A stretch of DNA of 49,397 nt, taken from contig JBFFWN010000001.1 of assembly GCA_041570235.1 (NCBI GenBank), positions 1 to 49,397 on the forward strand. Reading direction: 5' to 3'. Under the pieces are notes generated by a model. That model had not been told where the DNA came from, did no database searches, and saw nothing but the letters and a program-made list of their open reading frames with translations. Positions 3,598 through 44,010 of this stretch are shown piece by piece. The position numbers and the translations under genes are program-made. How positions within the stretch are numbered: the first letter of the stretch is position 1; each line of letters begins with the position of its first letter. Origin of the DNA: Lysobacterales bacterium. Lineage in GTDB: Bacteria; Pseudomonadota; Gammaproteobacteria; Xanthomonadales; SZUA-36.

Positions 3598-5208
3598 ATG
3601 AGCGAACACACAAGCGAACGGGAAGTCATGGAGTATGACGTTATTATCGTAGGCGCTGGTCCGGCCGGACTAGCCTGTGCGATTCGCCTCAAACAACTCA
3701 AACAGGACCTGATGGTCGCCGTGATCGAAAAAAGCGCCGAGGTTGGCGCACATGTATTGTCCGGCGCAGTGATCGAACCCCAGCCCCTGGATGAGTTACT
3801 GCCTGGCTGGCGTGACAACCCACCACCGGTATGTGTGCCGGTGGAAGATGACGAACTCGCGTACCTGACACGCACATCAAGGCTTAAGCTGCCGACACCA
3901 CCACAGCAAAAAAATCACGGTAACATCATTGTCTCGCTGGGGGCCCTGTGTAACTGGCTGGCCCCGCAGGCAGAGGACCTGGGCGTTGATATTTTCCCGG
4001 GCTACGCCGCGTCCGGCATCCATTACTCGGCCGATGGCGCTGTAGGTGGCGTCATCATCGGTGACATGGGTGTTGACAAGGCCGGCAAACCCAAAGATAC
4101 CTACATGCAGGGAATCGAAATCCATGCGCCCTTGACCGTGATGGCGGAAGGTTGCCGTGGTCATCTGAGCAAGGAGCTGATAAGCAAATTCAAACTGGAT
4201 GCAGAATCGGACCCGCAGTGTTACGGCGTTGGCATCAAGGAACTCTGGCAGGTGGCGCCGGGCAAGTGCAAACCCGGGCTTGTCAATCATACGATTGGCT
4301 GGCCGCTGGACAGCAAGACCTACGGCGGCAGTTTTATCTATCACATGGACAAGGATCGCGTTGCAGTGGGCTTTGTCTGTGCACTGGATTACTCAGACCC
4401 CGGGTTTTCGCCTTTCGAGGCATTTCAACAATTCAAACATCATCCAAGTATCAAACCGCTGTTTGAAGGCGGTGAAATCTTGTCGAGTGGCGCCCGCACC
4501 ATCGTCGAAGGCGGCGCACAGTCCCTGCCAAAGGTCGAAATGCCCGGTGCGCTATTGATCGGTGATGCGGCCGGGTTACTGAACCTGCCAAAGATCAAGG
4601 GCACCCACCAGGCGCTGCGCTCCGGTATGTTGGCGGCTGCCCATATTGCCGAGAAGGGCGATGGCAAAGGCTTCGATGAAACACTGCGCGCCTCAGCCAT
4701 TATGAAAGAGCTGCACAAGGTGAGAAATATACGCCCCGGCTTTAACAAGGGCTTATGGCGTGGTCTGATCACCGCAGGTATTGAGACCATCACTGCCGGA
4801 AAACTGCCACGCACGCTGCACAATCACGCCGATTACTCTTCGCTGACCAGGCTCAGCGAATTGAAACCCGTTGACCGTCATTGGATCAAACGGGATCTCG
4901 CTCCGCGTGACCGCCTCGCCTCGGTGTATTTTGCAGCCACTGATCACGATGAGGATCAACCGGTACACCTGCAGATTCTCGAACCGGATGTCTGCACCAC
5001 GCGCTGCACCCAGGAATACGGTAATCCCTGCACGCAGTTCTGCCCGGCAAATGTATATGAAATGGTCGGCGAAGATGCGCAAAGACAATTGCAGATCAAC
5101 GCTTCAAATTGCGTGCATTGTAAAACCTGTGATATCAAGGATCCGTACCAGATCATCAACTGGGTCACACCCGAAGGCGGCAGCGGGCCCAATTACCAGA
5201 ATCTTTAA
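3598..5208 (+). CDS. Electron-transfer flavoprotein:ubiquinone oxidoreductase (ETF-QO)
   Basis: N-terminal FAD fold YDVIIVGAGPAGLACA and a C-terminal 4Fe-4S motif CVHCKTCDIKDP...NWVTPEGGSGPNY. The ATG at 3598 is preferred to the TTG at 3586. The etfBA genes follow. Confidence 0.93.
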   Translation: MSEHTSEREVMEYDVIIVGAGPAGLACAIRLKQLKQDLMVAVIEKSAEVGAHVLSGAVIEPQPLDELLPGWRDNPPPVCVPVEDDELAYLTRTSRLKLPTPPQQKNHGNIIVSLGALCNWLAPQAEDLGVDIFPGYAASGIHYSADGAVGGVIIGDMGVDKAGKPKDTYMQGIEIHAPLTVMAEGCRGHLSKELISKFKLDAESDPQCYGVGIKELWQVAPGKCKPGLVNHTIGWPLDSKTYGGSFIYHMDKDRVAVGFVCALDYSDPGFSPFEAFQQFKHHPSIKPLFEGGEILSSGARTIVEGGAQSLPKVEMPGALLIGDAAGLLNLPKIKGTHQALRSGMLAAAHIAEKGDGKGFDETLRASAIMKELHKVRNIRPGFNKGLWRGLITAGIETITAGKLPRTLHNHADYSSLTRLSELKPVDRHWIKRDLAPRDRLASVYFAATDHDEDQPVHLQILEPDVCTTRCTQEYGNPCTQFCPANVYEMVGEDAQRQLQINASNCVHCKTCDIKDPYQIINWVTPEGGSGPNYQNL

Positions 5209-6948: not shown

Positions 6949-8910
<1,962 letters not shown>

Positions 8911-8959
8911 AGGGCTTTAGCTACTTCGATAAGATACGTGGCAGCGTTGGCGGCGCTAT

Positions 8960-9049
8960 GGGTAGTCCCTGCTGAGACATGCCGTAAACCCATCCCTGGG
9001 GGCGCGTCCAAAACATCCATGTTTTGTACGGTCTCAGCAGGGACTACCC
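8960..9049. repeat. Compound hairpin module H1 (copy A)
   Basis: An 18-bp outer stem, GGGTAGTCCCTGCTGAGA / TCTCAGCAGGGACTACCC, encloses an inner stem CAAAAC/GTTTTG and an unpaired segment, ACCCATCCCTGGGGGCGCG. Confidence 0.8.
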
Positions 9050-9324
9050 ACATCCCCGCCTCGGTTCAATGGATTCTAATTTAAGCGGTAGCTTCAAACT
9101 TTTGTGCGGATACTTCATGCAGCAATAGTCTCTTCAAGGTTCATGGTTCTATCGCTGCCGCTAGAGCGCATCTCACAGCCATTGATTCGTGATGCAGGCA
9201 CCTGAGCGCAACGGAGACCGATAAAATCTGCGTGAAAAGCACCTCGCTTTCAGAATGGGGATACAATCTTGACCGGCGGGGTGTAAATGATTTAACAGAA
9301 TCGACGGCTTAGAGCCGGGATGCA

Positions 9325-9412
9325 GGTACTGCTCCCAGGGACCGTCACAAACAGGAAGTTTGTGGACGAGGCCCCATGGATGGGTTCACGCCGGGTCCCT
9401 GGGAGCAGTACC
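9325..9412. repeat. Compound hairpin module H2 (copy A)
   Basis: An 18-bp outer stem, GGTACTGCTCCCAGGGAC / GTCCCTGGGAGCAGTACC, encloses CGTCACAAAC-AGGAA-GTTTGTGGACG plus GGCCCCATGGATGGGTTCACG. The interior is the reverse complement of the H1 interior. Confidence 0.8.
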
Positions 9413-9572
9413 TGTAGCGCGGCTGACGCTCGCACTATTCAATTCGAGGCCACCTGATGAAGCCTTATTGATTAAGAACAAGTTAGGCTGATAGAAGCTA
9501 CGGATAATCCTATTCGCACTTCCAGAGCCACACTATCAACTCTGAGTCACGCACCTAGCGAAAACTCGCCGC

Positions 9573-10733
9573 TTACAGAACACCATCAAGTTCATCAATC
9601 AGGTCATTAACGTCCTCAACCCCCACCGATAAACGCACCAGCGAATCTGTAATACCGATTTTGGCCCGCTTTTCGGGAGGCACCGAGGCATGTGTCATTA
9701 CCGCCGGCAGGTTTATCAGGCTTTCAACGCCGCCAAGGCTTTCGGCAAGTGAGAACAACTGGCAGCCTTCCAGCATCCTCCGCGAGGCGTCGGGGCCGCC
9801 TTTCAGGTCAATGCTGATAATGCCGCCGCCCATGCCATTCATCTGCCGCATGGCAAGCTCGTGCTGCGGGTGTGATTCCAGTCCCGGGTAGATCGTTTTT
9901 GAAACCGCCGGGTGCTTCTCCAGCCACTTGGCAATCTGCAAGGCATTATCGCAATGGGCTTTCATTCTCAAGGCAAGGGTTTTCAAGCCCCGCATAGCCA
10001 GGAAACTGTCAAATGGCCCCTGTATTGCGCCCACAGAATTGAGCAGATACCAGAGCCGGTCACCAAGCTCGATATCATCGCCGACCACGGCAATCCCGCC
10101 CACCATGTCCGAGTGACCATTCAGAAACTTGGTGGCAGAGTGAACCACTATGTCGGCCCCCAGTTCCAATGGCCGCTGCAAAACCGGCGAGGCAAAGGTG
10201 TTATCCACCACCAGTAAGGCCCCATGCTGTTTGGCTATCTCTGAGAGCTCTTTGATATCAACAACTTTCAACATCGGGTTGGTCGGCGTCTCCAGCCAGA
10301 TCATACGGGTTTCGGGCCGCAGGGCCGCCTTGATATCAGCCATGCTGTCCATGCCTGAAAACGTGAAACTCAAACCGGCGGAGCGTCCCCGAACGTTGTT
10401 AAACAGCCTGAAACTGCCACCGTACAGGTCATCAATGGCCAGCACATGGTCACCGGTATCGAGCAATTCGAGTACGGTCGAAGTCGCAGCCATTCCGGAC
10501 GCAAAAGCCAGCCCACGGGTGCCACTCTCGAGGTTTGCCATGCATTTTTCATAGGCATCACGGGTCGGATTATGACTGCGCGAGTACTCCCAGCCCTGAT
10601 GGTCGCCGGGGCTACGCTGAACGTAGGTGGATGTCGCGTAAATGGGTGTCATGATGGCGCCCGTTGACGGGTCCGGCTGCTGACCTGCATGAATGGCCCG
10701 GGTTGCTAGTGCGTGTTTTGTGTGATCTTTCAT
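9573..10733 (-). CDS. Cystathionine gamma-lyase / trans-sulfuration PLP enzyme (Cys/Met metabolism family)
   Basis: 386 aa with ATRAIHAGQ...DP.TGA...PIY.TSTY at the N-terminus and the PLP-lysine motif HSATKFLNGHSD. It overlaps the stop of the upstream CBS gene by 4 nt, indicating an operon. Confidence 0.88.
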   Translation of the reverse strand: MKDHTKHALATRAIHAGQQPDPSTGAIMTPIYATSTYVQRSPGDHQGWEYSRSHNPTRDAYEKCMANLESGTRGLAFASGMAATSTVLELLDTGDHVLAIDDLYGGSFRLFNNVRGRSAGLSFTFSGMDSMADIKAALRPETRMIWLETPTNPMLKVVDIKELSEIAKQHGALLVVDNTFASPVLQRPLELGADIVVHSATKFLNGHSDMVGGIAVVGDDIELGDRLWYLLNSVGAIQGPFDSFLAMRGLKTLALRMKAHCDNALQIAKWLEKHPAVSKTIYPGLESHPQHELAMRQMNGMGGGIISIDLKGGPDASRRMLEGCQLFSLAESLGGVESLINLPAVMTHASVPPEKRAKIGITDSLVRLSVGVEDVNDLIDELDGVL

Positions 10734-12186: not shown

Positions 12187-12393
12187 TTATTGAGCCATAA
12201 ACACGGCTAATTTGTCCTTGATCCACAATTTTTCTTTCTTTAGCTGGTTCAGAGCCAGGTCTTCCATCGGAGCCGTACCCAATTCAGCTGCTGTGACGCG
12301 TTTGTCCAGTTCCTGGTGACGGTTGTAGATCCGACGAAAGTCTTCGTTTTCCTCGATCAGTTGTTCCATTTTGCTCTTTTGGTCTGAAAACAT
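12187..12393 (-). CDS. YdcH/DUF465-family small protein
   Basis: 68 aa (MFSDQKSKMEQLIEENEDFRRIYNRHQELDKRV...LKKEKLWIKDKL), the typical DUF465 pattern. The ATG at 12393 has GGAG 8 nt upstream. The 36-aa N-terminal extension in the track ORF looks non-coding. Confidence 0.7.
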   Translation of the reverse strand: MFSDQKSKMEQLIEENEDFRRIYNRHQELDKRVTAAELGTAPMEDLALNQLKKEKLWIKDKLAVFMAQ

Positions 12394-12715
12394 ATGTAGT
12401 ACTCCTATACGGCGTGGTTCATCCGCAAATGCCGGGCACAGAATAACCTTCCGGAAGCGGATGATTGATGATTTGGTGAATTGAAAAACAGTATGTAGCA
12501 AATATCAGGTGGGAACAGCGAGAGACTTATAAGCCTCGCTGCCATTATTCGGAATCTCCGATTTTGAAAGCTAAAATTACCATAGCGATGCACTAACATT
12601 AGCGCAAACTGAAGCTTCTGGCAAGCAGTAAACCTTTCAGCGATTTGCGTAACATGAATTGCTTTTCGCAAATGCGGACCAGCAATAAATCAGCGTGCCT
12701 ATGTAACTGATATAA

Positions 12716-15981: not shown

Positions 15982-16719
15982 GTGGAGATACCTTCAATTC
16001 TGATCTGGCTGCTCCAGTTGGCGCTGATCATTCATGTGTTTAAAACCGATCGCAGCCGTTACTGGATTTTTTTCCTGATTTTTATGCCATTGATCGGCGG
16101 CATTGCGTATTTCCTCATTGAAATGCTACCCGGATTTACCGGCAGTATCGAAGGCCAGCGAGCTGTCAGAACCGTCAAACAAACTTTGAACCCCGGGGCC
16201 GACCTGCGGCAACATGAAGCTGCCTGGAGCCAATCTCCGAATGTTGATAATGGGCGCCGTTACGCCGAAGCACTGATGGACGCCGGTAAAATTGAAGACG
16301 CGGAAATAATCATCAACCAGGCGCTGAAAGGGCTATTTGAAACCGAGCCAACCCTGTTGCTGCTGAAAGCCCGCTTGCAGTTCGAGACCGGCAGAACCAG
16401 CGAAGCCGTGGCAACCCTCGAATCCCTGCAGGAGCACAATCCGGATTTTCGCTCGGCCGAAGGTCACCTTCTGTACGCCCGCGCGCTTGAGGCCGAAGGC
16501 AAGATCGACAGTGCCATCCGCGAATATTCGGCGGTGTCCGGCTACTATCCCGGCGTCGAAGCCCGCTACCGGCTGGCCCTATGCATGCAGTCTGCGGGCA
16601 ATGACAAAGCCTCGCGATCTGAATTTGAGTCCATTCTAAATGATGCAAAACTGGCGCCTCCTCATTTCCGGAAAAGCCAGAAGACCTGGCTGGATGCAAT
16701 CAGGCGCGACATGGCTTAA
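15982..16719 (+). CDS. Membrane protein with PLDc_N-like N-terminal helices and C-terminal TPR-like repeats
   Basis: GTG start. Two N-terminal TM helices (LLQLALIIHVFKTDRSRYWIFFLIFMPLIGGIAYFLIEMLP) resemble the cardiolipin-synthase N-terminal motif. The remainder is helical-repeat sequence. Confidence 0.6.
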   Translation: MEIPSILIWLLQLALIIHVFKTDRSRYWIFFLIFMPLIGGIAYFLIEMLPGFTGSIEGQRAVRTVKQTLNPGADLRQHEAAWSQSPNVDNGRRYAEALMDAGKIEDAEIIINQALKGLFETEPTLLLLKARLQFETGRTSEAVATLESLQEHNPDFRSAEGHLLYARALEAEGKIDSAIREYSAVSGYYPGVEARYRLALCMQSAGNDKASRSEFESILNDAKLAPPHFRKSQKTWLDAIRRDMA

Positions 16720-16927
16720 GCGCCCCGTGTCATCCCGTGATATGCGGATAGCATTTTCTGGGATCACTGAAAGCTACCTTAAACTCAAAGACAACGGATG
16801 TAGAACGGTTTCGTTCATATACGTGGCCAATCGGAATCCTGGATATCCATAAGACTGACTTGCCCTAAAAATGGAGTCCTTTTCAGGTGGGTTCGAAGCA
16901 AATAGTGCGAGCGTCAGCCGCGCTACA

Positions 16928-17062
16928 GGTACTACTCCCTGGGACCCGGCATGAACCCATCCATGGGGCCTCGTCCACAAACTTCCTCGGTAATTGCTCC
17001 TGCATTACTCTACCTCCTACTTCCCTGCAGTCGTGTTTGTGACGGTCCCAGTGAGTAGTACC
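16928..17062. repeat. Compound hairpin module H2 (copy B, with 47-nt loop insertion)
   Basis: The outer stem is GGTACTACTCCCTGGGAC / GTCCCAGTGAGTAGTACC. Two stem positions differ from copy A on both arms and pairing is preserved. Confidence 0.8.
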
Positions 17063-17338
17063 TGCATCCCGGCTTTAGGCCATCAATTCTAACAAGTCAT
17101 TTGCACCCAACCGGTTGAGAGTGATTCCCGCATCCTGAAAGTGAGTTGCTTATCACGCTGACTTTATCGGTCTCCGTTGCGCTCCGGTACCTGCATCACA
17201 AATCCATGGCTGTGAGACTCAATGCACCGGCAGCGATGGAACCATGAGCGCTGAAGAGACTATTACGACAAACAGTATTTGCACAAAAGCTGGAAGCTAC
17301 CGCTTCAATCAGAATCCATTGCACCGAGGCGGGGATGT

Positions 17339-17427
17339 GGGTAGTCCCTGCTGAGACCGTACAAAACAGGAAGTTTTGGACGCGCCCCCAGGGATGGGTT
17401 CACGGCATGTCTCAGCAGGGACTACCC
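17339..17427. repeat. Compound hairpin module H1 (copy B)
   Basis: The outer stem is identical to H1 of copy A. Differences are confined to the apical loop (AGGAA vs ATGGAT) and one base of the unpaired segment. Confidence 0.8.
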
Positions 17428-17677
17428 ATAGCGCCGCCAACGCTGCCGCGCATTTTAACGAAGTCGGAATTTGATGATCTATCGTTTGAAGTTGCAGAAA
17501 TCTGATGAAGGTCTCGGGTTCCTTTAATCGCGGCCCCGGAATGGCTTCTGCAGTTCTGCTGAGCGCTACCCTGTAAAAATCAAATAACCATCCCCATTTA
17601 ATGCCTTCAGTAAGCATCACGTTTATAATTGCCGCCCCGTACCATCCTATGGGTTATGAAAGACAGGAGATTTTGTT

Positions 17678-18025
17678 GTGCCGATTTATGAATACCGTTG
17701 TGAATCTTGTGATCATAAACTGGAAAAATTGCAAAGAATGAGCGAAGGCGACCTGGTCGATTGCCCCGAGTGTAAACGGCCGGCGTTAAAAAGGCTGGTC
17801 TCTGCTCCTGCATTTCGACTCAAGGGCAGTGGTTGGTACGAGACAGACTTCAAGAAAGACAATAAGCGTAACCTGGCCGATGAGTCCGTCAAGGACACAT
17901 CCAGCGTCAGTTCGGCCAAGGATACCAGTGCCGGCAGTTCCACCAAGACGGAAAAAGCTTCGTCAGGCGATACGGCCAAGAAAGCGGAATCCAAGCCCGC
18001 AGCAAAAACAGCTTCCAAGGAATAA
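17678..18025 (+). CDS. FmdB-family zinc-ribbon protein
   Basis: [23 protein letters not shown]....CPECK......[19 protein letters not shown] is the FmdB CxxC...CxxC signature. It has a GTG start and a low-complexity S/K/A tail. Confidence 0.8.
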
Positions 18026-18030
18026 AGACA

Positions 18031-19794
18031 ATGCGTAGTCATTTATGTGGTGAAATCAATGAGACAATGGACGGACAATCGGTCACTTTGTGTGGATGGG
18101 TCGACCGCCGAAGAGACCTTGGCGGGCTGATCTTTGTTGGTCTCCGGGATAATGCCGGTATCGTGCAGGTGGTGGTTGAACCCGAGAGCGATGCCTTTGC
18201 AGATGCAGAGCGTCTGCGTAATGAATATTGCGTCAGGATAAAGGGCAAAGTGCGTCTGCGGCCCGAGAGCCAGTGGAATGACTCGATGGCTACCGGCAAG
18301 ATTGAACTGGTTGCAGAAGATGTGGAAACTCTCAATGCATCGGCACCTATTCCATTGTTAATGAATGACGATGATGGGGAGGAAGTTCGCCTGCGTTATC
18401 GTTACCTTGATTTGCGCCGGCCGCGTATGCAACGCAATATGCGTATCCGTTCAAAACTGAACCAGGCCATACACAAGCATCTCGATGGTAATGGCTTCAA
18501 CGAGTTTGAAACACCCATCCTGACCAAGGCTACACCGGAAGGCGCGCGCGATTACCTGGTGCCCAGCCGTGTACATGCGGGTCAGTTTTATGCCTTGCCG
18601 CAGTCGCCACAGCTGTTCAAACAGTTGCTGATGATGGCCGGCATGGATCGCTACTACCAGATTGCCCGTTGCTTCCGCGACGAGGACCTGCGTGCCGACC
18701 GCCAGCCTGAATTTACACAGCTGGATATGGAGATGTCCTTTGTGGAGGAGTCCGATGTCCAAAATGCCGCCGAGGGATTGGTTCATGCGGTTTTCAAGGA
18801 CGTCCTGGATGTGGAATTGCCGCGGCCATTCCCGCATATGACCTGGCATGATGCATTGGAACAATACGGATCCGACAAGCCGGATCTGCGTTACCCGATG
18901 CAACTGCACAGCGTAGACGAGCATGTAAAACACCTCGAATTCCGCGTGTTTTCTGACCCGGCCAACAATGAGGAGCATCGTGTAGCCGTGTTGAGGGTGC
19001 CCGGCGGCGCACAATTCTCCCGCAAGCAGATCGATGAATATACGGCCTTTGTCGCGCGTTACGGCGCAAAGGGCCTGGCCTGGATCAAGGTCAATGATGC
19101 GGCGGCCGGCATTGAAGGTCTCCAGTCTCCCGTGGCCAAGTTCCTGGATGACAAGGCCTGGAGTGGCATTGCAGAGCAGACGCAGGTTGAAAGTGGCGAC
19201 CTGTTGTTGTTTGGCGCGGGCGAATGGTTACAGACCAGCACCTTTATGGGGCACCTGCTGGTTCGTTGCGGCCAGGACCTTGAATTGGCGGCAGAAGGTT
19301 GGGCGCCCCTTTGGGTAACCGACTTCCCGATGTTTGAGTGGGATGAAGAAAGTGGCCGTTACACGGCCATGCATCACCCGTTCACGGCGCCGCGTTCGGA
19401 TTCGGCCGAGGCATTGAAGGCCAATGCCGGCAAGGCCTTGTCAAAAGGTTATGACATCGTTCTTAACGGTGCGGAAATCGGTGGTGGCTCGATTCGTATT
19501 CATAACCCCGAGATGCAGGCGGCTGTTTTCGAGTTGCTCGGTATCGGTGAAGAAGAAGCACAAGCCAAGTTCGGCTTTTTGCTTGAAGCGCTCAAATACG
19601 GGTGCCCGCCCCACGGCGGTATCGCATTCGGGCTAGACCGGGTGGCCGCCCTGATGGCTGGTGAACCTTCCATCCGTGATGTGATTGCTTTCCCGAAGAC
19701 CACCACGGCGCAGTGCCCGTTGACCGATGCTCCGTCACCCATTGTTGACGCCCAGCTCAAAGAATTGCATATCGGAGTTGTAAGCAAAAGCTGA
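18031..19794 (+). CDS. aspS: Aspartate-tRNA ligase
   Basis: 587 aa with MRSHLCGEI...V.L.GWV.RRRD.GG.IF..LRD..G and class II motifs ([32 protein letters not shown]). Confidence 0.95.
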
Positions 19795-31151: not shown

Positions 31152-31227
31152 GGGTCGTTAGCTCAGTTGGTAGAGCACTGGACTTTTAATCCATTGGTCG
31201 TAGGTTCGAATCCTACACGACCCACCA
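31152..31227 (+). tRNA. tRNA-Lys (anticodon UUU)
   Basis: The 76 nt fold manually into a cloverleaf: acceptor GGGTCGT/ACGACCC, D-arm GCTC/GAGC, anticodon loop CTTTTAA, T-arm GTAGG-TTCGAAT-CCTAC, and an encoded CCA. It is near-identical in pattern to E. coli tRNA-Lys. Confidence 0.95.
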
Positions 31228-31309: not shown

Positions 31310-31606
31310 CTAAGTTTCGGGGTCTGCCAGGTACTGTTGTGCAGAATTCTTGAAATCGTCATACAGGGGGACGGCTTTTCGGGCTTTTAGATCAAACGTC
31401 ACCGTCACGTTTTCCATCGTCGCAGCCAACTCCCCGGTGTTGCGGTTAACCATCCTGTGGTGATGCACAAAAGATTTATTGCCAAGGCTGATCAGTACAC
31501 TTTCTATGTACACCAAAGCCCCGCTCCGCAGCTCTTGCTTGTATTCGAGGGTTGATTTTACATCAGCGAAGCCTTCGCCCCTTTTCAGCATCTCTTCCTG
31601 CGGCAC
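31310..31606 (-). pseudogene. 5'-truncated hotdog-fold thioesterase remnant
   Basis: The 98-aa ORF matches only the C-terminal two-thirds of 4HBT/YbgC-like thioesterases (...YIESVLISLGNKSFVHHHRMVNRNTGELAATMENVTVTFDLKARKAVP). The N-terminal catalytic DTD...H region is missing, and the reading frame runs straight into the MITE-like repeat at 31601+. Confidence 0.55.
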
Positions 31607-31739
31607 TCGGGGGACAGTTTACTTAATACCCACAGATTTCCCGGCACTCGGGGGGCAGTTTACTTAATACCCACAGATTTCAGCGGCTTTTTACGACAAA
31701 TTTAGTTTGCCCTGATATCCATTTAAGTAAACTGTCCCC
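31601..31739. mobile_element. MITE-like element copy 1 (complete 90-bp unit 31650-31739 plus a 40-bp tandem duplicate of its left end and flank, 31601-31640)
   Basis: Terminal inverted repeats are GGGG(G/A)CAGTTTACTTAA ... TTAAGTAAACTGTCCCC. There is no coding capacity. It is about 85% identical by eye to the copy at 43827-43916, in the same orientation. Confidence 0.7.
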
Positions 31740-31855
31740 TGATATGCTGATATCGCGATGCCTTCCACGAGCAATCGATTCTCAAAGTCGGCCATGCCTA
31801 CGAGCAGACCACGGACTGGCATAAACAACGCCCGCGGGTCTGACGAGCGCGTGGT

Positions 31856-43784: not shown

Positions 43785-43826
43785 CTTCCTCACGGAGGCA
43801 AAAGACGATAAAAGGCGAGCTCATTC

Positions 43827-43916
43827 GGGGGACAGTTTACATAATTCTCAGGGGTTTCAGCGGCTTTTTCCGACTAATTTAGTTTCCCATGATACCCATT
43901 TAAGTAAACTGTCCCC
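43827..43916. mobile_element. MITE-like element copy 2
   Basis: GGGGGACAGTTTACATAA ... TTAAGTAAACTGTCCCC. It has the same length, orientation and internal sequence (TTTCAGCGGCTTTTT.CGAC.AATTTAGTTT) as copy 1. Confidence 0.7.
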
Positions 43917-44010
43917 TGATACCTGCTGCAGGTTAGATCTATTCCTGGCGATAAACTGAACTCAGCAAGGGCCGAGTCAGTCAGAATGATTGACACTGGG
44001 CAAAAATCTG

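Follow-up and report, generated by a model that had tools for sequence, protein, structure and literature searches.

A conserved-tip hairpin module of Gammaproteobacteria and the putative mobile palindromic mosaic that it builds

The 49,397-nt stretch of Lysobacterales DNA analyzed here (hereafter, the window) carries two copies of a 0.6-kb element that we interpret, with roughly even confidence, as a non-autonomous mobile mosaic of palindromic repeats, of the BIME/REPIN/MITE kind, acting at the DNA level. Its building block is a hairpin of ~110 nt (~190 nt counting lead and tail), which we call the H module, in which a three-way-junction tip of ~52-55 nt sits on a 20- to 30-bp stem whose sequence differs among copies while its pairing is kept. 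This module is the real unit, spread over several gammaproteobacterial lineages, and the ~250-nt center of the element is a lineage-specific spacer. The ~110-nt conserved-tip hairpin is apparently undescribed: a literature search by sequence string returned no matching paper, and the REP, MITE, and Stenotrophomonas repeat literature that we searched describes SMAG/REP and TIRtron repeats, not the H module.

Architecture of the two copies

The initial annotation had paired the intergenic DNA at 8921-9530 with that at 16820-17455 as an inverted repeat, and both the pairing and, in essence, these bounds proved right. A repeat search returned four collinear inverted-repeat blocks (8923-9018/17369-17464, 94%; 9011-9260/17128-17377, 84%; 9258-9356/17031-17129, 80%; and 9353-9457/16883-16987, 92%), and pairwise alignment of the two copies gave 86% mean column identity with a single 47-nt indel, present as extra sequence in copy B (16988-17034). 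Multi-copy alignment with copies on other contigs places copy A at 8916-9530 of the plus strand (ends at ~8916-8925 and 9530) and copy B at 16836-17470 of the minus strand (ends at ~17470 and 16836), the two being mutually inverted and 7.4 kb apart. Each copy consists, in order, of a hairpin (H1), the ~250-nt spacer, a second hairpin (H2), and a ~100-nt tail that closes with a REP-like hairpin in a decayed state. The pair of terminal hairpins described previously is real but turns out to be one and the same module in opposite orientation, which had been missed: H2 is a diverged H1, inverted. The reported unevenness of conservation is even stronger than stated, as copies A and B share 98% identity in H1 and 95% in H2 versus 80% in the center, 75% in the lead, and 68% in the tail; both 30-nt arms of the H1 stem are 100% identical.

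Copy A begins with the 5' lead of H1 (TTTAGCTACTTCGATAAGATACGTGGCAGCGTT..., 8916-8948, plus strand), where the similarity of A, B, and the copies at loci L024 and L018 starts; this lead is homologous to the opposite-strand lead of H2 and is 58-75% identical from copy to copy. Module H1 follows at 8949-9060 on the plus strand (inverted repeat I6), with arms at 8949-8978 and 9031-9060 around the three-way-junction tip at 8979-9030, whose mini-hairpins are P2 (CCCA-UCCC-UGGG) and P3 (CAAAACA-UCCA-UGUUUUG). It folds at -70.9 kcal/mol (z = -6.1), scores 95.3 bits (E = 5e-22) against covariance model R1, and is 98-100% identical across A, B, L024, and L013. The spacer (9061-9312, unstranded) is partly deleted in L024, L018, and L013 and is unconserved between the module pairs of other lineages. 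It contains a weak terminator-like mini-hairpin at ~9082-9107 (AAGCGGTAGCTT then CAAACTTTTGTG), which we read by eye from the sequence as the counterpart of a terminator-like site called by the scan in copy B (17306-17293). Module H2 (9313-9424; arms at 9313-9343 and 9394-9424; inverted repeat I5 and direct-repeat families D2 and D4) has its core on the minus strand, where it scores 84 bits against R1, and shows two fully compensated stem changes relative to copy B, G-C to A-T and A-T to T-A. The tail (9425-9530, plus strand), whose right end was set by a six-copy alignment, closes with the decayed REP-like hairpin at ~9497-9530; the intact form found elsewhere is TCCCGGATAATGCTATTCGCTTTTCCGGGATGA, and L015 has this small right-end hairpin in tandem behind acsA. 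On its right side, the element is followed by chromosomal flank with the motif AACTCTGAGTCA and its 9-nt palindrome ACTCTGAGT (9538-9549, plus strand), which is also present at 11963-11974 of L013, where it stands on the left side of the element.

In copy B, the pairwise and multi-copy alignments place the left end and the H1 lead at 17439-17470 of the minus strand. H1 (inverted repeat I7; 86.8 bits against R1 on the minus strand) occupies 17328-17438 of the same strand, with arms at 17328-17357 and 17409-17438. The spacer spans 17075-17327 according to the repeat search and the alignments, and the latter put the decayed tail and right end at 16836-16915 (minus strand). H2 (16916-17074, core on the plus strand; arms at 16916-16946 and 17044-17074; inverted repeat I8) scores 65.5 bits over 16930-17060 and holds the extra 47-nt segment inside its P3. 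This segment adds UCC motifs in sense and GGA motifs in antisense (eight GGA on the antisense strand), and a homologue of the extra stretch is found in L014 (12361-12430).

The initial annotation also held that the element has no conserved ORF, no promoter/terminator pair, and no known RNA, and our scans agree. An origin as the remnant of a duplicated gene, which had been named as an explanation that would undo the element's novelty, is rejected: none of the ten small ORFs matched Pfam, and the SD-ATG ORF of copy B does not stay in frame in the homologue from L014. We found no sigma-70 promoter-like site and only one weak terminator-like site, a GacA-box scan gave nothing significant, and in the ~100-nt tail neither a significant fold (z about 0) nor a conserved terminator was seen. 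The Rfam scan that had been proposed was run with Rfam 15 and returned no family in the window at the gathering score. At E up to 10, the element region produced only miRNA-hairpin noise (15-23 bits versus thresholds of 60-130), and across 14 other loci the only Rfam family was RNase P RNA, beside the L024 copy. No IS, MITE, or REP family was found for the element either.

The hairpin module and its covariation

Compared with shuffled sequence, every hairpin is much more stable when folded (z = -6 to -10). The window contains the core motif four times versus 0.00 expected, and R1 recovers the four modules of the window and no others. RNAalifold predicts the three-way junction, with compensatory changes at 33 of 42 pairs. 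When this named structure was tested, 90.9% of cells were paired versus 70.3% in shuffles (0 of 500 shuffles reached the observed value), double-change compensatory cells numbered 164 versus 45 in shuffles, and slid-structure controls gave 33-51%. P2b covaries as well, changing from CCCA/TGGG to TACA/TGTA in the second subfamily.

G.U pairs are not enriched, many stem positions show all four Watson-Crick pair types (GC/CG swaps included), and folding energy has no strand asymmetry (16 versus 13 modules; mean difference, -0.8 kcal/mol). Together with the identical H1 stems, we count these as signs from which we infer that the element acts at the DNA level.

The tip is near-invariant in hosts of 43-71% GC, and at an orthologous site the module has been kept with a tip identical at 58 of 59 positions versus 87% identity of the flanking gene, which looks like host-level purifying selection. 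The selection on the hairpins proposed in the initial annotation draws support from the family-level covariation and the near-invariant tip. Four paralogues, however, have H1 stems that are 100% identical although their flanks share only 65-90% identity, and this points no less to homogenization, by conversion or by renewed copying, than to purifying selection.

Other copies, gene neighborhoods, and known repeat systems

Composite copies with unrelated flanks were found at L024, L018, and L029. Among the acsA neighborhoods, which were retrieved via proteins near-identical to the window's AcsA, is that of a sister strain (L013), 99.4% identical over 8.9 kb. After acsA, this strain carries a different paralogue, nearer to B and L024, in the opposite orientation and without H2; the AACTCTGAGTCA motif stands directly after the acsA stop codon, abutting the right end of the inverted element, and the contig breaks off within H1. 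Since the sister strain holds a different, oppositely oriented paralogue at acsA despite being so similar, the element appears to have moved recently. A simple inversion of the 7.4-kb A-B segment was rejected as the source of this arrangement on logical grounds, because recombination between inverted copies keeps the orientation of the element relative to acsA. What had been taken for an old duplication rather than a recent copy is accordingly more than one old duplication, as the L024, L018, and L029 copies and the L013 paralogue speak for recent mobility. Deletion derivatives also occur, and the module is found alone, decayed, interrupted, or partial at various loci. No direct repeat that would indicate a target-site duplication is common to the flanks of A, B, L024, L018, L013, and L029, no gene that could mark a parent element is bracketed by any of the module pairs seen, and among the 16 ORFs scanned in the window, no RAYT gene was recognized and no integrase gene was noticed near the element.

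The exact core pattern was detected at 12 genome loci and 19 metagenome loci, on unrelated stems. Carriers of the module family include Stenotrophomonas, Parahaliea, and uncultured Gammaproteobacteria; Stenotrophomonas sp. LGBM10 (NZ_CP177163.1) and Parahaliea mediterranea TN14-10 are cultured examples. One complete 4.47-Mb Stenotrophomonas genome has two loci with the strict pattern, and copy number looks low. No match was found in plasmids (about 72,000), phage records (about 50,000), or viral contigs.

With respect to genes, a stop codon precedes about 21 of 23 modules at a distance of 73-150 nt, with the sense strand of the tip being the sense strand of the adjacent upstream gene, and for unpaired modules only, this orientation rule holds about 9 to 1. 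Modules often come in convergent pairs, and in Stenotrophomonas they are clustered between convergent genes. In convergent gene pairs, the strand of each module matches the nearer gene, but the symmetric arrangement makes the rule automatic there and therefore weaker evidence. The neighbors are housekeeping genes. In addition, 15 nt separate the L024 composite from the RNase P RNA gene that precedes it in the same sense, and behind the acsA of L014 stands another kind of long hairpin, likewise in the sense of the gene, whose loops are of the CAUCC type. At L010 and L007, the genes' own intrinsic terminators stand between stop codon and module, and some Stenotrophomonas modules face bidirectional terminators on the strand that carries GGA. 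Local GC skew, taken as a gauge of replication-strand bias, split 11 versus 5 with redundant loci included, which is uninformative, and so did not account for the orientation.

The module resembles REP, BIME, and REPIN elements (PMC3733652, PMC8266576, PMC3184786) in being chromosomal, extragenic, non-coding, and hairpin-forming, in lying mostly downstream of genes, between convergent genes, and in clusters of alternating orientation, in forming mosaics of different palindromic units, and in being unseen on plasmids or phages. Furthermore, the composite ends on the right in a REP-like hairpin of ~35 nt. REPs carry an unpaired GTAG or CGTC tag at one end of the palindrome; several copies of the small hairpin have a candidate CGTC/AGTC tag, the preceding bases being CGTCA in L015, L018, and L029, AGTCA in L013, and CTTCA in L024. 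However, only this terminal hairpin fits the 20-40 nt of a REP, as the H module measures 112 nt with a 52-nt branched tip, and whereas REPs conserve their stems, the H module keeps its tip constant from one order to another and varies in the stem. The apparently low copy number and the lack of a RAYT linked to the module are further differences. A G-Y-A-G sequence occurs in many module stems (GGGTAG, GGATAG, GGGCAG, GGTAC), 16-17 nt from the tip, where these GTAG-like bases are paired rather than forming an unpaired tag.

Like a MITE, the composite is about 0.6 kb long, has no coding capacity, sits at unrelated loci, and shows deletion derivatives, strain-level insertion polymorphism, and terminal inverted repeats, with H1 plus lead being about 70% like the reverse complement of H2 plus lead. 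It differs in having no target-site duplication, no parent IS with matching ends among the module pairs, plasmids, phages, and ten ORFs, and asymmetric ends (the ~100-nt tail extends beyond H2 on one side only). Moreover, both 'terminal repeats' are complex palindromes in their own right and can be found singly as well. The missing target duplication agrees with IS200/IS605-derived PATE; the inverted hairpins do not, as PATE hairpins share one orientation. With integron attC sites, the module has in common a folded single-strand structure kept while sequence varies, a position directly after genes in fixed orientation, and a length of about 60-140 nt. However, the R''/R' core sites (RYYYAAC / GTTRRRY) and extrahelical bases of attC are absent, the module stems are perfect with variable bases, the tip rather than the stem base is conserved, and the neighbors are housekeeping genes rather than cassettes.

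The TIRtron repeats of Stenotrophomonas maltophilia (TIRYT Smlt1152; PMC3733652) are likewise self-complementary and clustered, come from a genus that carries the module, and have been proposed to be mobilized by an HUH tyrosine transposase. Identity with them was rejected: in six contexts (L035-L040) retrieved with the Smlt1152 sequence of PMC3733652, the repeats beside the Smlt1152-type genes are GGGGTCAG...CTGACCCC palindromes of 41 nt or short inverted repeats of other kinds. R1 gave no convincing module in these contexts, the best score being 21.9 bits, 2.2 kb from the transposase gene (L040) and about equal on both strands.

Competing explanations and biological meaning

Under the DNA-level mosaic reading that we favor, two convergent modules, the ~250-nt spacer, and the REP-like-ended tail would be copied as one unit to several chromosomal sites, and the copied units would settle in tolerated space just downstream of genes, as at all sites seen. 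The hairpin would extrude in single-stranded DNA, and a trans-acting enzyme encoded elsewhere in the genome, such as an HUH/RAYT-type or other structure-specific recombinase, would recognize the conserved tip. Arm complementarity would be upheld by arm-to-arm correction (template switching within the quasi-palindrome) and by conversion between copies rather than by RNA-level selection, and any influence on neighboring genes, for instance protection of 3' ends by the hairpin, would be secondary. No mobilizing enzyme was identified, the sole candidate tested being the Smlt1152-type TIRYT, whose flanking repeat differs. We count against this reading the sense orientation of about 21 of 23 modules, unexpected for a selfish element that acts purely at the DNA level, as well as the low-looking copy number, the absence from plasmids and phages, and the conserved tip.

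The same orientation, together with the 9-to-1 ratio among unpaired modules, favors a tentative alternative, in which the module would be a sense-strand 3'-UTR RNA element with which the transcript of the upstream gene ends. Its long stem would stop 3' exonucleases or make RNA polymerase pause, and the tip, with its two N-UCC-N-U loop mini-hairpins, would tune mRNA fate by binding a conserved factor of the host or by pairing with RNAs that contain GGA; we know of no factor that recognizes UCC loops. The position of the L024 composite behind the RNase P RNA gene, the same-sense hairpin after acsA in L014, the conserved tip, the covarying helices, the retention of an intact tip at the orthologous site, and the weak terminator-like hairpin after H1 in sense orientation are all consistent with such a role. 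However, there is neither G.U enrichment nor strand asymmetry in stability, stems of 25-30 perfect bp are unusual in functional RNA, terminators precede the module at L010 and L007, the orientation rule is automatic in convergent pairs, and many copies are partial or decayed. We hold this alternative to be possible but rather unlikely.

Read on the antisense strand, the tip forms two neighboring stem-loops with ANGGAX hexaloops, closed by C-G and about 23 nt apart. The ANGGAX hexaloop is the high-affinity motif of CsrA/RsmA, and two such loops are the layout clamped by one CsrA dimer in RsmZ-type sponge RNAs. Across 34 distinct modules, we counted a mean of 1.7 full CANGGANG and 3.8 GGA in antisense versus 1.3 GGA in sense, and the loops of both subfamilies have an invariant A, a variable N, an invariant GGA, and a variable final base. 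It is conceivable, albeit unlikely, that the tip is a dual ANGGAX-hexaloop clamp for CsrA/RsmA and that the family is a dispersible, copy-number-variable, predicted CsrA-binding module (a sponge or a CsrA-responsive 3' element) on a mobile hairpin. As an antisense-strand RNA, the modules would be small, scattered units that titrate CsrA, with transcription running from the spacer outward to the terminators of the neighbors, a scenario that we likewise regard as improbable; alternatively, the orientation rule would be what persisted once selection had purged copies that put GGA loops into mRNAs. The antisense excess and the conserved loop positions argue for CsrA binding, as do the GGA motifs added on that strand by the copy B segment and its L014 homologue and the bidirectional terminators faced by some Stenotrophomonas modules. 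On the other hand, the mRNA of the adjacent gene carries the UCC form rather than GGA, a GGA-strand transcript would have no sigma-70 promoter-like site, GacA-type box, or terminator, the GGA strand has no G.U excess, GGA in P3 has been lost in two lineages, and the motif match was noticed post hoc.

Csr/Rsm sponges (CsrB, RsmX/Y/Z; RsmU, PMC7694677) resemble the module, on its antisense strand only, in having two adjacent ANGGAX stem-loops, and also in occurring in multiple or tandem copies per genome. They differ in that the module matches no Rfam Csr/Rsm family by sequence or covariance model, has no promoter or terminator of its own that we could find, places the UCC form in neighboring mRNAs, has a 25- to 30-bp perfect stem, and behaves as a mobile repeat. 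Xanthomonas RsmU, a comEA 3'-UTR sRNA, is the only RsmA sponge of that genus reported in PMC7694677, which describes it as genus-restricted; identity of the module with it looks improbable, as the core-pattern scan of genome contigs gave no Xanthomonas locus. CsrA is described as highly conserved in PMC13443453, which could account for a tip conserved across 43-71% GC.

A plain segmental duplication of an intergenic stretch, without mobility or function and with palindromes that merely resist change, would fit the mere two window copies, 7.4 kb apart and inverted, and the lack of a transposase and of a target-site duplication, but is very improbable, being already contradicted by the further copies with unrelated flanks, the sister-strain polymorphism in orientation and paralogue identity, the modules common to distant genera, and covariation far above controls.

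Bacterial palindromic repeats, such as REP, BIME, REPIN, ERIC, and Correia elements, usually have conserved stems as their defining feature and a lineage-specific distribution. The H module family reverses this usual pattern, with a constant branched tip in hosts from 43% to 71% GC and a stem that drifts at about the neutral rate while remaining perfectly paired, and it offers a natural test case for the upkeep of long palindromes by selection versus arm-to-arm correction. Covariance model R1 could be used to annotate these elements, which break assemblies (the L013 contig ends in H1) and mark recombination-prone intergenic sites. The family implies a conserved partner that reads the tip. If that partner is a recombinase, the module would belong to a new structure-recognized mobile DNA system; if it is CsrA/RsmA, the module would be a new class of regulator-binding module in lineages poorly known for such RNAs. 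Indeed, to our knowledge, Csr/Rsm antagonist RNAs are largely unknown in the Xanthomonadales-like and other Gammaproteobacteria that carry the module, and a true CsrA clamp would tie the mobility of a repeat element to the tuning of a global post-transcriptional regulator.

Anatomy and extent of the composite copies

A repeat search of the window revealed an inverted repeat in four collinear blocks (8923-9457 versus 16883-17464, 80-94% identity), and pairwise alignment of the two copies gave a mean column identity of 86% with a single 47-nt indel, nucleotides 16988-17034 being extra in copy B. Both analyses confirm the two inverted, non-coding copies described in the initial annotation. The coordinates proposed there (8921-9530 and 16820-17455) proved nearly exact in an alignment of copies A and B with four more copies from other contigs, which places the ends of copy A at ~8916-8925 and 9530, and those of copy B at ~17470 and 16836. 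Two convergent genes flank copy A, encoding acetoacetyl-CoA synthetase (acsA, 6949-8910, plus strand) and a Cys/Met-metabolism PLP enzyme (9573-10733, minus strand). Copy B is flanked on the left by a TPR protein gene (15982-16719) and on the right by a zinc-ribbon (FmdB-type) gene (17678-18025) followed by aspS (18031-19794), all on the plus strand.

Each copy comprises five parts: a short lead, hairpin H1, a ~250-nt centre, hairpin H2, and a ~100-nt tail. In copy A, the arms of H1 are found at 8949-8978 and 9031-9060, and those of H2 at 9313-9343 and 9394-9424. Both hairpins fold with z scores of -6 to -10 versus shuffled sequence and are predicted to form a three-way junction capping a long stem. 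H2 is the H1 module in reversed orientation; H2 of copy A is linked to H1 of copy B by direct-repeat families D2 and D4, and the window has exactly four occurrences of a 23-nt core pattern (AACCCATCCNTGGGGNCNCGTCC), one in each hairpin, versus 0.00 expected. No significant fold was found in the tail, which in the better-preserved copies of the six-copy alignment is terminated by a small hairpin, TCCCGGATAATGCTATTCGCTTTTCCGGGATGA.

The extra segment of copy B sits inside H2 and carries, on the minus strand, AGGAGG, 7 nt, and an ATG (17005-17003) that opens a 40-aa ORF (16883-17005). This ORF, the only one with a strong ribosome-binding site, was rejected as a gene, as it is frame-shifted in the homologue from L014, an 82% relative; because the homologous stretch there (12361-12430) differs by a 1-nt indel, the segment is conserved as nucleotides, not as protein. 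The initial view that the element lacks a conserved ORF, a recognizable RNA gene, and an obvious promoter/terminator pair was borne out: none of ten small ORFs matched Pfam, Rfam 15 gave no family match in the window or 14 other loci, no sigma-70 promoter-like sites were found in the element, and its one terminator-like hairpin, located after H1 in the sense orientation, is weak.

The window also hosts a separate ~100-nt MITE-like element in two copies (31601-31744 and 43819-43921; 87% alike, 12.2 kb apart) with terminal inverted repeats GGGGACAGTTTACTTAA...TTAAGTAAACTGTCCCC. A 41-nt tandem half-copy occupies 31601-31640, and the first copy lies ~400 nt 3' of tRNA-Lys(TTT) (31152-31227).

Conservation and pairing in the module family

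Scanning one genome per species for the core pattern uncovered 12 loci in Stenotrophomonas spp., Parahaliea mediterranea, and several gammaproteobacterial MAGs, and a metagenome collection yielded 19 further loci; the pattern was not found among the viral contigs, plasmids, or phages scanned. The ~55-nt tip is near-identical in all of these genome and metagenome loci, the stem sequence differs lineage by lineage with pairing kept, and the GC content of the hosts spans 0.43-0.71. For 24 modules, RNAalifold predicted the three-way junction, with compensatory changes in 33 of 42 pairs. Using a structure written by hand on a trimmed alignment, we found 90.9% of cells paired versus 70.3% in shuffles (0 of 500 reached the observed value) and double-sided changes in 164 cells versus 45 expected, and sliding the partner by 1-3 columns reduced pairing to 33-51%. 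A covariance model (R1) built from the trimmed module alignment recovered no module in the window beyond the four already known, but extra, more divergent ones in the other loci. The divergent matches include a second subfamily, in which helix P2b itself covaries from CCCA/TGGG to TACA/TGTA and the loop keeps N-TCC-N-T.

Three further observations concern individual loci. In a Stenotrophomonas maltophilia MAG (L011, 7623-7760), foreign DNA with 24-nt tandem repeats (GTCGACTCTACCGATCAGGCGTCG) and inverted sequence TCGACTGTTAGTCGACTGGCG on its flanks splits a module inside mini-hairpin P3. Modules of Stenotrophomonas sp. LGBM10 are locally tandem-duplicated, with a 221-nt unit repeated twice at L010 1391-1720 and a partial module copy at L007 6915-7100. 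L012, titled Bacillus subtilis SK7B5 contig00063, has 67% GC and a module that closely matches those of L034 and of the Stenotrophomonas type; the contig is probably a contaminant of the Bacillus assembly.

Among copies A and B, a copy on another contig (L024), and that of a sister strain (L013), H1 is 98-100% identical, and both of its 30-nt arms are 100% identical wherever comparable; identity is 58-75% in the lead and 75-90% in the centre. For H2, comparing A, B, L024, L018, and L029 gives 79-96%, and the tail is 64-86% identical between copies. The interpretation of the inverted pair as an old duplication with selection on two nearly identical hairpins is supported in part. From A to B, H2 has two changes in its stem that are fully compensated and one change that is not. 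Where two Stenotrophomonas species share an orthologous site, the module tip is identical at 58 of 59 positions and the flanking gene at ~87%; the arms are only roughly half identical, each copy being perfectly self-complementary. Folding energy shows no strand asymmetry (core strand stabler in 16 modules, opposite strand in 13), G.U pairs are rare, and at many positions along the stem each of the four Watson-Crick pair types is frequent. Taken together, these features fit pairing maintained at the DNA level, better than they fit RNA-level selection. Arm-to-arm correction within a quasi-palindrome is an established mutational mechanism. It may keep the stems paired, as may conversion between copies.

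Mobility and the acsA 3' spacer

Composite copies with unrelated flanks are present in three other contigs: L024, whose centre is ~150 nt shorter; L018, in which H1 is deleted; and L029, which holds only the right part, at the contig start. In L024, a bacterial RNase P RNA gene (class A, 330 bits; 1459-1813) ends 15 nt from the composite's right end, with the nearer module oriented in the sense of that gene. Up to the acsA stop codon, the sister strain (GCA_041570815.1) matches the window over 8.9 kb at 99.4% identity. Past that codon, the element is inverted relative to the window, lacks H2, and by sequence resembles copy B and L024 more closely than it does copy A (centre identity 88%, 90%, and 82%, respectively). 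In the window the element has the chromosomal motif AACTCTGAG(TCA) on its right (9538-9549), and in the sister strain on its left; the site was therefore filled independently, or filled anew, once the two strains had diverged. No target-site duplication was seen in the composite-copy alignment.

In L014, the syntenic spacer holds a different hairpin, larger and with a long stem (z = -10); its branched tip likewise has CAUCC-type loops, and it follows acsA in the same sense. In L015, an 85% relative, acsA is directly followed by at least four tandem units of ~45 nt (4583-4791), each with a ~35-nt CGTCA-tagged hairpin (TCCCGGAAATGC-GAA-GCATTATCCGGGA); this is the unit that forms the right-terminal hairpin of the window composite, with an identical design. 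Palindromic units of several kinds thus have a hot spot in the acsA 3' spacer, and the element in the window is a mosaic made up of units of this sort. REP elements are 20-40 nt long with an unpaired GTAG or CGTC tag (PMC3733652, PMC8266576), a description that does not fit the composite itself but appears to fit its terminal small hairpin. The self-complementary repeat family flanking the Smlt1152 tyrosine transposase of S. maltophilia (PMC3733652) was rejected as a match, since the repeats flanking that gene family in six contexts are 41-nt GGGGTCAG palindromes or short repeats of other kinds; R1 found no flanking module in any of the six.

Module orientation and alternative readings

Approximately 21 of 23 independent modules lie 73-150 nt 3' of a stop codon with the core strand as the sense strand of that gene, as called with a simple ORF and GC3 heuristic. 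Each module between convergent genes agrees with the nearer gene, and in the recurrent convergent pair the left module is on the plus strand and the right one on the minus strand (L002, L008/L033, L027, L034, L007, L010, L024, and both window copies). Because symmetry yields the orientation rule in such pairs, the independent evidence comes from unpaired modules, at ~9 to 1. Local GC skew did not explain the orientation. The DNA between paired modules is not conserved from lineage to lineage, so the centre in the window is best interpreted as spacer. A sense-strand 3'-UTR RNA element seems to us unlikely; in Stenotrophomonas L010 and L007, the intrinsic terminators of the genes sit between stop codon and module.

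Somewhat less likely still is that the tip, read on the strand opposite the core, would be an antisense CsrA-binding RNA. On that strand both mini-hairpins read C-[A-U/G-G-G-A-U]-G, with an invariant A, a variable base, an invariant GGA, and a variable last base in the loops of both subfamilies. Full CANGGANG motifs average 1.7 per module (34 distinct modules), and the 47-nt segment of copy B adds GGA, giving 8 in its H2 module. The loops specifically match the high-affinity CsrA/RsmE motif, an ANGGAX hexaloop directly atop a stem (PMC4005645), and such binding would explain tip conservation across very different hosts. However, the orientation rule gives neighbouring mRNAs the complementary UCC form, no promoter, GacA-type box, or terminator was found for an antisense transcript, and no Csr/Rsm covariance model matched. 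We retain the CsrA reading, but not as the main explanation.

The explanation we favor, with roughly an even chance of being correct, is that palindromic units make up a mobile but non-autonomous mosaic of the BIME/REPIN/MITE kind, built around a hairpin family that combines a conserved branched tip with a free-but-paired stem. Such an element would work mainly at the DNA level and would be mobilised by an enzyme acting in trans, and the hairpin family at its heart is apparently undescribed.
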